Source of the DNA: Escherichia coli
GTDB lineage: Bacteria > Pseudomonadota > Gammaproteobacteria > Enterobacterales > Enterobacteriaceae
Assembly: GCF_044324785.1 (NCBI RefSeq)
Contig: NZ_CP172127.1
Length of the DNA stretch: 64,000 nt
Strand: one strand, 5' to 3'
Numbering within the stretch: the stretch's first letter is position 1; every line of letters starts with the position of its first letter. The notes beneath the pieces were generated by a model. It saw only the letters and a list, made by a program, of their open reading frames with translations. It was not told the DNA's origin and did no database searches. The translations under genes and the position numbers were made by a program. This document shows, piece by piece, positions 24,344 to 36,737 of the stretch.

Positions 24344-26445
<2,102 letters not shown>

Positions 26446-26610
26446 TTAGTTAATTCTCTGTGTCGTGCGCGTCCCAGCTTGAAAAAACGTAATAATAGTG
26501 AAAGGTTTACTCATAAATGAGCGGCATTTTGCGTAAACCTGCGCCAGTTGGCAACTTATTACAGCCATTGGCGGCACGCGTTGCTAATTCTCGATGGTGA
26601 TTTTATTTCC

Positions 26611-26649
26611 ACGCAAACGGTTTCGTCAGCGCATCAGATTCTTTATAAT
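26611..26649 (+). promoter_or_regulatory. purL promoter: PurR box ACGCAAACGGTTTCGT (26611-26626) plus -10 TATAAT (26644-26649)
   Basis: Close match to the PurR operator consensus placed over the -35 region, upstream of the purL ATG. Confidence 0.75.
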
Positions 26650-26702
26650 GACGCCCGTTTCCCCCCCTTGGGTACACCGAAAGCTTAGAAGACGAGAGAC
26701 TT

Positions 26703-29700
26703 ATGATGGAAATTCTGCGTGGTTCGCCTGCATTGTCGGCATTCCGAATCAACAAACTGCTGGCACGTTTTCAGGCTGCCAGGCTCCCGGTTCACACTAT
26801 TTACGCCGAGTATGTCCATTTTGCTGACCTCAATGCGCCGTTAAACGATGATGAGCACGCACAACTTGAACGCCTGCTGAAATATGGCCCGGCACTCGCC
26901 AGCCACGCCCCGCAAGGCAAACTCCTGCTGGTGACCCCGCGTCCTGGCACCATCTCTCCCTGGTCTTCGAAAGCGACCGATATTGCCCATAACTGCGGGC
27001 TGCAACAGGTAAACCGTCTTGAGCGCGGCGTGGCTTACTATATAGAAGCCGGTACGCTGACCAATGAACAATGGCAGCAGGTTACCGCTGAACTGCACGA
27101 CCGCATGATGGAAACGGTCTTTTTTGCTTTAGATGATGCAGAGCAGCTGTTTGCACACCATCAACCGACTCCGGTCACCAGCGTTGATTTGCTGGGGCAG
27201 GGCCGTCAGGCGCTAATCGACGCTAACCTGCGTCTTGGCCTGGCACTGGCGGAAGATGAAATTGACTATTTGCAGGATGCTTTCACAAAGCTTGGTCGTA
27301 ACCCGAACGACATCGAACTGTATATGTTTGCCCAGGCGAACTCCGAGCACTGCCGCCACAAAATTTTTAACGCCGACTGGGTTATCGATGGTGAACAGCA
27401 GCCGAAATCGCTGTTTAAGATGATCAAAAACACCTTCGAAACCACGCCGGATCACGTTCTCTCTGCTTATAAAGATAACGCCGCCGTAATGGAAGGTTCT
27501 GAAGTGGGCCGCTACTTTGCTGACCACGAAACGGGCCGCTACGATTTCCATCAGGAACCGGCGCATATTCTGATGAAAGTCGAAACTCACAACCACCCGA
27601 CTGCGATTTCTCCGTGGCCGGGCGCGGCGACCGGTTCCGGCGGTGAAATCCGCGATGAAGGTGCCACCGGACGTGGCGCAAAGCCGAAAGCTGGTTTGGT
27701 TGGTTTCTCCGTTTCCAACCTGCGAATTCCTGGCTTCGAACAGCCGTGGGAAGAAGATTTCGGTAAGCCTGAGCGCATTGTCACCGCGCTGGACATCATG
27801 ACCGAAGGCCCGCTGGGCGGCGCGGCATTTAACAACGAATTTGGTCGTCCGGCACTGAACGGCTACTTCCGTACTTATGAAGAAAAAGTGAACAGCCACA
27901 ATGGCGAAGAGCTGCGCGGTTATCACAAACCGATCATGCTGGCGGGTGGGATCGGCAACATTCGCGCCGATCACGTACAAAAAGGCGAGATCAACGTTGG
28001 TGCGAAGCTGGTCGTTCTCGGCGGCCCGGCAATGAACATCGGTCTTGGCGGCGGCGCGGCGTCTTCCATGGCATCTGGTCAGTCTGATGCCGACCTCGAC
28101 TTTGCTTCCGTACAGCGCGACAACCCGGAGATGGAGCGTCGCTGCCAGGAAGTGATCGACCGTTGCTGGCAGCTTGGTGATGCCAACCCAATCCTGTTTA
28201 TCCACGACGTTGGCGCAGGCGGTCTTTCTAACGCCATGCCGGAACTGGTGAGCGACGGCGGGCGCGGCGGTAAATTTGAACTGCGCGATATCCTGAGCGA
28301 CGAACCGGGCATGAGCCCGCTGGAAATCTGGTGTAACGAATCCCAGGAACGCTACGTGCTGGCGGTTGCTGCCGATCAGTTACCGCTGTTTGACGAACTG
28401 TGTAAGCGTGAACGAGCGCCATACGCGGTGATTGGCGAGGCCACCGAAGAATTACATCTTTCTCTGCACGATCGTCATTTTGATAATCAACCCATCGATC
28501 TGCCGCTGGACGTGCTACTCGGCAAAACGCCGAAGATGACTCGCGATGTACAAACGCTGAAAGCGAAAGGCGACGCGCTGGCCCGTGAAGGGATCACCAT
28601 CGCTGACGCGGTGAAACGCGTGCTGCATCTGCCGACCGTGGCGGAGAAAACTTTCCTGGTGACCATTGGTGACCGCAGCGTAACCGGCATGGTAGCGCGC
28701 GATCAGATGGTGGGTCCGTGGCAGGTGCCGGTCGCTAACTGCGCGGTCACTACCGCCAGCCTCGATAGCTACTACGGCGAAGCGATGGCAATTGGCGAGC
28801 GTGCGCCGGTTGCGCTGCTGGATTTCGCCGCCTCTGCCCGTCTGGCGGTCGGTGAAGCGTTAACCAATATTGCCGCAACACAGATTGGCGATATCAAACG
28901 CATTAAACTTTCCGCGAACTGGATGGCAGCGGCAGGTCATCCAGGCGAAGATGCGGGCCTGTATGAAGCCGTTAAAGCTGTGGGCGAAGAGCTTTGTCCG
29001 GCGCTGGGCCTGACGATCCCGGTGGGTAAAGACTCTATGTCGATGAAAACCCGCTGGCAGGAAGGTAACGAAGAGCGCGAAATGACGTCGCCGCTGTCGC
29101 TGGTGATTTCTGCATTTGCCCGTGTGGAAGATGTGCGTCACACCATCACGCCGCAGCTTTCTACCGAAGATAACGCATTACTGCTGATTGATCTGGGCAA
29201 AGGCAATAACGCGCTGGGCGCAACGGCGCTGGCGCAGGTTTATCGTCAGCTTGGCGACAAACCGGCAGATGTACGCGACGTCGCGCAACTGAAAGGTTTC
29301 TATGACGCGGTTCAGGCGCTGGTAGCACAGCGTAAGCTGCTCGCGTACCACGACCGCTCTGATGGCGGCCTGCTGGTAACGCTGGCGGAAATGGCCTTTG
29401 CTGGTCATTGCGGCATTGACGCGGATATCGCCACTCTGGGTGACGATCGCCTGGCGGCGTTGTTTAACGAAGAACTGGGTGCGGTGATTCAGGTTCGAGC
29501 CGCTGACCGTGAAGCCGTTGAAGTGGTACTGGCACAGCATGGGCTTGCTGATTGCGTCCATTATGTTGGCCAGGCGGTTTCCGGTGACCGTTTTGTGATT
29601 ACCGCCAACGGGCAGACTGTATTCAGCGAAAGCCGCACTACGTTGCGTGTCTGGTGGGCAGAAACTACCTGGCAGATGCAGCGCCTGCGTGACAACCCGG

Positions 29701-30590
29701 AGTGTGCCGATCAGGAACATCAGGCGAAATCCAACGACGCCGATCCGGGCCTGAATGTGAAACTGTCGTTCGATATTAACGAAGATGTAGCAGCTCCGTT
29801 TATCGCTACTGGCGCGCGCCCGAAAGTTGCCGTACTGCGTGAGCAAGGCGTGAACTCGCATGTTGAAATGGCGGCAGCTTTCCACCGTGCGGGCTTTGAT
29901 GCTATCGACGTGCATATGAGCGACCTGCTGACTGGACGCACGGGACTGGAGGATTTCCACGCCCTGGTCGCGTGCGGTGGTTTCTCCTACGGTGATGTGC
30001 TGGGTGCCGGTGAAGGTTGGGCGAAGTCTATCCTGTTCAATGACCGTGTACGCGATGAGTTTGCAACCTTCTTCCACCGTCCGCAAACGCTGGCGCTGGG
30101 GGTATGTAACGGTTGCCAGATGATGTCTAATCTGCGTGAACTGATCCCAGGTAGTGAGTTGTGGCCACGTTTTGTGCGCAATACCTCCGATCGCTTTGAA
30201 GCGCGTTTCAGCCTGGTTGAAGTGACCCAAAGCCCATCGCTGCTATTGCAGGGGATGGTGGGCTCACAGATGCCGATTGCTGTGTCTCACGGTGAAGGGC
30301 GCGTGGAAGTGCGCGATGCGGCGCATCTGGCGGAGCTGGAAAGTAAAGGGCTGGTGGCACTGCGCTATGTCGATAACTTCGGTAAAGTCACTGAAACCTA
30401 CCCGGCTAACCCGAACGGTTCTCCGAATGGTATTACGGCGGTTACGACTGAAAGTGGTCGAGTCACCATTATGATGCCGCACCCGGAACGTGTTTTCCGT
30501 ACTGTCAGCAACTCCTGGCATCCGGAAAACTGGGGCGAGGATGGCCCATGGATGCGCATTTTCCGCAATGCGCGTAAGCAGTTGGGGTAA
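26703..30590 (+). CDS. purL: Phosphoribosylformylglycinamidine synthase
   Basis: 1295 aa single-chain FGAM synthase with C-terminal glutaminase domain (GVCNGCQ). Confidence 0.98.
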
Positions 30591-30674: not shown

Positions 30675-30788
30675 TGTCTGTAAATCACGACAATGGGTGG
30701 TTTACCGTGTCGCTTTCTGGCGACACTTAACTGATTGATTTTAATAGTATCTAATAAGTTTATCTTAAGTTGTCTCTTTTTAGCGACA
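30675..30788 (+). promoter_or_regulatory. Three GlrR (QseF-type) activator sites TGTC-N10-GACA at 30675-30692, 30708-30725 and 30771-30788
   Basis: Three exact TGTC-N10-GACA repeats 100-230 bp upstream of the sigma54 promoter; fits the recalled glmY upstream activating sequences. Confidence 0.75.
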
Positions 30789-33452: not shown

Positions 33453-34776
33453 ACCTGCGCATTTATTATTGGTCGATGACGATCCGGGATTGCTGAAACT
33501 GCTTGGCCTGCGTCTGACCAGCGAAGGCTACAGCGTGGTTACGGCGGAAAGTGGTGCTGAAGGATTACGGGTACTGAATCGCGAAAAAGTAGATTTAGTC
33601 ATCAGCGACCTGCGGATGGATGAAATGGACGGTATGCAGCTGTTTGCTGAAATCCAGAAAGTGCAGCCGGGAATGCCAGTAATTATTCTTACTGCGCATG
33701 GTTCTATTCCCGATGCCGTTGCTGCAACACAGCAGGGCGTTTTTAGTTTCCTCACCAAGCCTGTCGATAAAGACGCGCTATATCAGGCAATTGACGATGC
33801 GCTGGAACAATCCGCGCCAGCCACCGATGAACGCTGGCGCGAGGCGATTGTCACCCGCAGCCCGCTGATGCTGCGTTTGCTGGAACAGGCGCGGCTGGTG
33901 GCACAATCAGACGTTAGCGTTTTGATTAACGGCCAGAGCGGCACCGGGAAAGAGATTTTCGCCCAGGCTATCCACAACGCCAGCCCGCGCAACAGCAAAC
34001 CATTTATTGCTATTAACTGTGGTGCATTGCCCGAGCAATTGCTGGAGTCGGAGCTGTTTGGTCATGCGCGTGGAGCGTTTACTGGCGCTGTCAGCAATCG
34101 CGAAGGTTTATTCCAGGCGGCGGAAGGCGGTACGCTATTTCTCGATGAGATTGGCGATATGCCCGCACCGTTGCAGGTTAAACTGCTGCGCGTGTTGCAG
34201 GAGCGTAAAGTGCGCCCGCTGGGCAGTAACCGCGATATTGATATCGACGTGCGGATTATTTCTGCCACTCACCGCGACCTGCCAAAAGCGATGGCGCGCG
34301 GGGAATTCCGTGAAGATCTTTATTACCGCCTCAACGTTGTCAGCCTGAAAATTCCGGCACTGGCGGAGCGCACAGAAGACATTCCGCTACTGGCAAATCA
34401 CCTGTTGCGCCAGGCGGCAGAGCGACATAAACCGTTTGTCCGCGCGTTCTCTACCGATGCGATGAAACGCCTGATGACCGCGAGCTGGCCGGGTAATGTG
34501 CGCCAGTTGGTCAACGTGATTGAACAGTGCGTGGCGCTGACCTCATCTCCGGTGATTAGTGATGCGCTGGTGGAGCAGGCGCTGGAGGGTGAAAATACGG
34601 CGCTGCCAACCTTTGTTGAGGCACGTAATCAGTTTGAACTCAACTATTTGCGTAAGCTGCTGCAAATTACCAAAGGCAACGTCACCCACGCGGCGAGAAT
34701 GGCGGGGCGCAACCGGACAGAATTTTATAAACTGCTTTCCCGACACGAGCTGGATGCAAACGATTTCAAGGAATGA
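33442..34776 (+). CDS. glrR: Sigma54-dependent response regulator GlrR (YfhA/QseF), 444 aa
   Basis: ORF 33340..34776; internal ATG 33442; receiver domain, AAA+ with GAFTGA, C-terminal HTH; overlaps the qseG 3' end by 11 nt. Confidence 0.9.
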
Positions 34777-34800: not shown

Positions 34801-35175
<375 letters not shown>

Positions 35176-36461: not shown

Positions 36462-36605
36462 AAAAAATAGCCCTGCAATGTAAATGGTTCTTTGGTGTTT
36501 TTCAGAAAGAATGTGATGAAGTGAAAAATTTGCATCACAAACCTGAAAAGAAATCCGTTTCTGGTTGCAAGCTCTTTATTCTCCAAAGCCTTGCGCAGCC
36601 TGAAG

Positions 36606-36621
36606 GTAATCGTTTGCGTAA
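36606..36621 (+). promoter_or_regulatory. Possible PurR operator in the glyA promoter (GTAATCGTTTGCGTAA)
   Basis: Contains the CGTTTGCGT core of the PurR box about 120 bp upstream of glyA. Confidence 0.4.
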
Positions 36622-36737
36622 ATTCCTTTGTCAAGACCTGTTATCGCACAATGATTCGGTTATACTGTTCGCCGTTGTCCAACAGGACCGCCTATAAAGG
36701 CCAAAAATTTTATTGTTAGCTGAGTCAGGAGATGCGG

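Follow-up and report, generated by a model that had tools for sequence, protein, structure and literature searches.

PurR is a dimeric repressor whose corepressors are hypoxanthine and guanine, and its helix-turn-helix binds the palindromic PUR box with the minor groove opened, so that RNA polymerase loses access to the promoter (2024 review, PMC10912719). Many complexes of PurR with corepressor and operator are available in the PDB, e.g. 1PNR, 1QPZ and 1BDI, and in the solved complexes the hinge helices of PurR are inserted at the central CpG of the operator (PMC10912719). The PUR boxes of E. coli (purF, purMN, purHD, purEK, purC, purT and others) share a 16-bp imperfect palindrome, the central CpG and the same corepressor logic. 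The roadblock operators of purB and of purR autoregulation use the same protein and motif, but they lie downstream of the transcription start and block elongation. PurR of Bacillus and Lactococcus has only its name and the regulated pathway in common with the E. coli repressor: it is an unrelated PRT-fold protein which senses PRPP and (p)ppGpp and recognizes another motif. The Bacillus-type PurBox has the motif AWWWCCGAACWWT and lies upstream of the promoter.

The PurR box of purL is already known: it belongs to the textbook pur regulon of E. coli, and its in vivo binding has been published. In the ChIP-chip study of Cho et al. (2011; PMC3159470, Table 1), the PurR-bound region at purL spans 2,693,490-2,693,714 and contains the motif ACGAAACCGTTTGCGT at 2,693,642-657. 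The log2 enrichment of this region was 1.88 in the presence of adenine, and no peak was found in its absence (Cho et al. 2011, PMC3159470). Adenine represses the full set of eleven genes from PRPP to IMP, purL included, in the wild type but not in a purR deletion mutant, and the Discussion of the same study names purL among the genes under PurR-hypoxanthine repression (PMC3159470).

We analyzed a 64,000-nucleotide stretch of E. coli DNA, here called the window, in which purL is preceded by a divergent open reading frame ending at 26445 that corresponds to MltF. The box lies in the 257-bp divergent intergenic region between mltF and purL on the E. coli chromosome, and the coordinates of the features discussed are collected in Table 1. 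Of 5426 complete E. coli genomes, 5425 contain the 361 bases around the box, which are always chromosomal and annotated as purL and mltF. The purR gene itself lies outside the window; it is annotated in MG1655 and present in 5424 of the 5426 complete genomes.

Table 1. Features of the purL gene and its control region, in window coordinates.
Feature	Position	Strand	Basis
A+T-rich tract GATTTTATTTC, -58 to -48, directly 5' of the operator	26599..26609	+	Conservation
PurR operator (PUR box), 16-bp imperfect palindrome ACGCAAACGGTTTCGT	26611..26626	+	Sequence, position weight matrix, published ChIP-chip motif, conservation
-35 hexamer position, TTTCGT, the last six bases of the operator	26621..26626	+	Inferred by position, from the fixed 17-bp gap to the -10
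-10 hexamer TATAAT, -13 to -8	26644..26649	+	Sequence; conservation; sigma-70 -10 listed for the mapped purL start site
Discriminator GACGCCC, G+C-rich	26650..26656	+	Box-anchored stack
Transcription start +1, G	26657	+	Mendoza-Vargas 2009; one 454 read, frequency 1, low confidence class
purL leader, 46 nt	26657..26702	+	Conservation
purL coding sequence, phosphoribosylformylglycinamidine synthase, 1295 aa	26703..30590	+	NCBIfam equivalogs NF003672 and TIGR01735, E = 0; RefSeq annotation

The initial annotation of this stretch, made from the sequence alone, had called a PurR box over the purL promoter, and this call is borne out: the 16 bases at this position are the exact reverse complement of the purL ChIP-chip motif of Cho et al. 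(2011). As the observation which would speak against its call, the annotation had named an absence of PurR-dependent repression of purL; the published data show such repression (Cho et al. 2011, PMC3159470). Taken together with the sequence comparisons described below, ACGCAAACGGTTTCGT is almost certainly the operator through which PurR, a purine repressor of the LacI/GalR family, controls purL, the gene for step four of the de novo purine pathway. The box is of little value as a discovery and serves as a calibration point, at which operator, target gene and promoter geometry were all read correctly from sequence alone.

The box is self-complementary at 12 of its 16 positions, with the central CpG at C26618-G26619 (positions 8-9). 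Of the 14 positions that the published PurR consensus ACGNAAACGTTTGCNT specifies, the box agrees with 13 when read on the - strand and with 12 on the + strand, and it differs from ACGCAAACGTTTTCGT by one mismatch. To score its strength, a position weight matrix was derived from published PurR motifs (Cho et al. 2011, Table 1, PMC3159470); purL was excluded, and the 27 remaining sites were used. Such a scan had been proposed as a check in the initial annotation, and it gave the purL box 22.4 bits against a matrix maximum of 25.5, which ranks it 7th to 9th among the 28 published sites. A score of 22.4 bits was reached in 1 of 200 random first-order Markov sequences of 64 kb, and in none of 200 with glyA excluded from the matrix as well; the chance probability of such a PurR box is thus about 0.005 or less per 64 kb. 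The box was the sole position to score positive in the mltF-purL intergenic region, and no second PurR site was found by the matrix in the conserved block after the -10 (at most 1.4 bits). With a mid-to-upper score among the 28 sites, the purL site shows no difference of substance from the other PUR boxes of E. coli. A Bacillus-type PurBox was rejected as a candidate: there was no match with one mismatch or fewer near purL, and the window as a whole held three matches versus 1.9 expected by chance.

The box had also been described as lying over the -35 region of a promoter with its -10 hexamer, TATAAT, at 26644-26649. The gap from the box to this hexamer is exactly 17 bp, and it is the same in 29 of the 29 enterobacterial sequences stacked. 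Since 17 bp is the optimal spacing between -35 and -10 elements, the last six bases of the operator (26621-26626) fill the -35 position. A single 454 read of low confidence class places a purL transcription start at -46 relative to the start codon; the -10 is listed as attcTTTATAATgacg (Mendoza-Vargas et al. 2009, Table S1, PMC2760140). Counted from the ATG at 26703, this makes G26657 the +1 and puts the operator at -46 to -31, centered at -38.5. G26657 is 7 nt after the -10, the expected distance; the start site tables of Kim 2012 and Ettwiller 2016 are without a purL entry near the expected coordinate. A position over the RNA polymerase contacts, as seen here, is typical for PurR operators according to Cho et al. 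(2011; PMC3159470).

The statement that the operator overlaps the -35 describes a position and not a recognizable hexamer, as TTTCGT matches TTGACA at only two of six bases. A consensus scan of the + strand did not call the purL promoter, there being no hexamer 16-18 bp 5' of TATAAT with more than two of six matches to TTGACA. PATSER likewise called no -35 for purL (Mendoza-Vargas 2009, PMC2760140). The promoter was missed by the consensus scan because its -35 is weak, and this negative result would have been misleading if read alone.

With the operator at -46 to -31, filling the -35 position and adjoining the A+T-rich tract, bound PurR should block RNA polymerase contacts. When purines are abundant, hypoxanthine or guanine would bind the PurR dimer as corepressor and bring it onto the imperfect palindrome. 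Each half-site would be contacted in the major groove by one helix-turn-helix, and at the central CpG the minor groove would be opened and kinked by the hinge helices. PurR bound in this way would keep sigma-70 region 4 and the alpha C-terminal domains off the promoter, with the result that there would be no initiation at G26657. When purines fall, the corepressor would be lost, PurR would leave the DNA and the perfect -10 would drive purL transcription. We infer steric exclusion of RNA polymerase at purL from this geometry, and in the literature consulted we found no direct RNA polymerase competition experiment at this promoter. As the box lies upstream of +1, it would act at initiation, and the roadblock mode of purB and purR is excluded by position. 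The A+T-rich tract may provide an UP-element-like contact.

Conservation of the box was assessed at purL loci picked by a degenerate pattern for the PurL N-terminus, M-x-I-L-R-G-x-P-A-L-x-x-F, with one genome per species and without use of the box itself. The pattern scan yielded 120 loci, among which 28 from Enterobacterales were assessable, having enough upstream DNA. The box was present in all 28 of these upstream regions, at 20.2-22.3 bits, and the identical 16-mer was found in 22 of them. Carriers of the identical 16-mer include Escherichia albertii, Citrobacter, Enterobacter, Klebsiella, Yersinia, Serratia, Rahnella and Pectobacterium as well as Photorhabdus, Xenorhabdus, Providencia, Arsenophonus and Budvicia. 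On the + strand, the purL box departs from the consensus at position 10 (G) and position 13 (T); these two bases are specific to purL, and the Enterobacterales keep them. In Pseudomonas, Pseudoalteromonas, Aeromonas, Fibrobacter and other taxa that are neither enteric nor Vibrio, scores were 11.3 bits or less, with the presence of purR scored in E. coli only.

An ungapped, box-anchored stack of 29 enterobacterial sequences has TATAAT in 27 and TATACT in two, always 17 bp after the box. All 16 bases of the box are conserved in this stack, including the 10 that precede the -35 position. Conservation is only 40-70% over the first ~10 bp of the spacer to the -10, and the DNA further upstream varies. 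The A+T-rich tract GATTTTATTTC is conserved in Enterobacteriaceae, and in other families the corresponding DNA is A+T-rich only. The invariant 17-bp distance across the Enterobacterales indicates that the operator supplies the -35 position. This invariance is a modest addition to what is known of purL and was not found stated in the literature consulted, as is also the case for the displaced box of the Vibrionaceae described below.

Among 5426 E. coli genomes, 5402 share the same sequence over the 45-base segment that begins just 5' of the box and ends with the -10, and the box itself is unchanged in at least this number; by contrast, the surrounding 361 nt show 1-5% divergence in 1370 genomes. 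The genomes are not phylogenetically independent, and these counts are therefore no more than supportive. The single variant inspected, in ETEC1738, has its change at 26610, immediately outside the box.

In the Vibrionaceae, the box stands before the orthologous gene and scores 16-25 bits; downstream of it are a perfect TATAAT and a G+C-rich discriminator. Of 14 loci, 12 reached 16 bits or more (L007, L009, L018, L037, L039, L049, L056, L061, L075, L090, L094 and L106). The box is preceded by an A-tract and lies 29 bp from the -10 (27 bp in L007), which is ~12 bp, or about one helical turn, further upstream than in the Enterobacterales. In contrast to the enterobacterial arrangement, the box does not supply the -35 in these species, and a separate conserved GTTACA occupies that position.

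Three other loci carry degenerate or decayed forms of the box. Aeromonas (L031 and L103) has a degenerate version, AGAAAAACGTTTGTTC, which scores 5.6 bits and is still at the enterobacterial distance of 17 bp from TATAAT. In the symbiont Candidatus Enterovibrio escacola (L016), the box has decayed to AAGAAAATAATTGCCA (-2.7 bits), and the -35 GTTACG and TATAAT are kept.

Downstream of the -10, the discriminator has the form G/A-N-CGCCC in most Enterobacterales. The discriminator and the transcript start (26650-26667; start GTTTCCCCCCC) are together conserved across enterobacterial families nearly as well as the operator, a second modest addition that was not found stated in the literature consulted. 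The leader begins with the conserved GTTT(T)CCCCC(C) at 26657-26667 and contains a conserved GAAGAC at 26688-26693, followed by a Shine-Dalgarno-like GAGAGA at 26694-26699. A comparison of the leader to Rfam returned no family, the only match being a chance snoRNA hit (E = 9.6). Pairing of the 5' GUUUUC with GAAGAC was considered as a conserved leader helix and set aside as unsupported; many species have the bases needed to form the helix, but substitutions disrupt its pairs and compensatory changes are absent.

It is conceivable, though we rate it as unlikely, that purL receives a second input beyond PurR, from ppGpp/DksA or from nucleotide levels, through the discriminator and the G-UUU(U)-CCCCCC start. 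Such an input might operate by short-lived open complexes or by slippage along the run of U. Promoters inhibited by ppGpp typically have a G+C-rich discriminator, a rule that is not predictive (PMC9304144), and stringent control of purL by ppGpp/DksA is put forward here only as a hypothesis derived from this general rule. We consider it similarly unlikely, as a separate matter, that the 16/16 identity of the operator across more than 15 genera reflects a double constraint, acting on the operator and on a -35 or upstream contact.

The operator could in principle be shared, governing also a divergent mltF promoter with -35-like and -10-like hexamers that lie around the box and partly within it. 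On the - strand, a match of the form CTGACG-18-TAAAAT (26629..26600) encloses the box with nine of 12 consensus matches, and its TAAAAT sits in the conserved GATTTTATTTC tract. We regard this reading as improbable. The element is a consensus match, of which the region has two versus 0.8 expected by chance; its "-35" is mostly conserved as part of the box, and the A+T-rich tract is not conserved beyond the Enterobacteriaceae. The start site table that lists purL has no entry for mltF/yfhD (Mendoza-Vargas 2009), and Cho et al. (2011) assign the ChIP peak to purL only and do not report mltF as PurR-dependent. If the - strand promoter were real, PurR would gate mltF too.

Even less probable is that a paralogous repressor of the LacI family, such as RbsR, is the main or an additional occupant of the purL box. 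Among the solved paralogues of PurR, RbsR is the closest (E = 4.6e-95), and it recognizes a similar AAACGTTT core, with which the right half of the box, GTTTCG, is presumably compatible, as in rbs-type operators. RbsR is also a reported repressor of purHD, but its action is mentioned in the review at purHD only (PMC10912719). The purL box is in the better-scoring half of the genuine PurR sites, the ChIP-chip enrichment of PurR falls exactly at this box, and the repression of the pathway genes is published as PurR-dependent, all of which favors PurR itself as the regulator.

That the box is conserved merely as promoter DNA (-35 or UP-proximal), with its likeness to a PurR site coincidental and PurR inactive here, has next to no probability and is in effect refuted by the ChIP-chip and expression results already published: although some constraint would follow from promoter function alone, given that the box fills the -35 position with a constant spacing to the -10, TTGACA-like bases would then be expected, yet the conserved hexamer has two of six; all 16 bases are conserved, 10 of them upstream of the -35 position; the Vibrionaceae keep the box at another distance along with a separate -35, so its conservation is independent of the -35; PurR occupancy has been published in vivo; and a chance match of this strength is rare, as calculated above.

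We also looked at other candidate sites in the window. An 18-base sequence, TAACTGATTGATTTTAAT, lies at 30728-30745, between purL and the next open reading frame (31084), which is probably glrK. It has one mismatch to a predicted IHF site labelled "purL" (Mendoza-Vargas 2009, file 6), and this site was rejected as a part of the purL promoter since it maps 3' of the gene. Within the purL coding sequence, a PurR-like match, CCGCAAACGCTGGCGC, at 30081-30096 scores 11.8-12.1 bits, less than would be expected by chance in 64 kb; this match is most likely fortuitous.

The sole other site in the window of a strength comparable to the purL box is the glyA operator, AGGTAATCGTTTGCGT, at 36604-36619 in the hmp-glyA divergent region, ~128 bp 5' of the open reading frame at 36732 (glyA). 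It scores 21.7-22.5 bits, is itself published (Cho et al. 2011, Table 1, PMC3159470) and served here as an internal positive control. The purL and glyA sites are 9,993 bp apart in the window versus 9,994 bp by the published motif coordinates in MG1655.

A weaker PurR-like site, ATGCAAACGATTTCAA, is present on the + strand at 34754-34769, inside the 3' end of the preceding open reading frame and ~68 bp 5' of glnB (34837-35175). Its score of 11.4-11.9 bits is below the 64-kb chance level (mean random maximum, 15.5 bits). A glnB operator was characterized earlier and was missed by ChIP-chip (Cho et al. 2011, PMC3159470), and the site at 34754-34769 is probably this operator.
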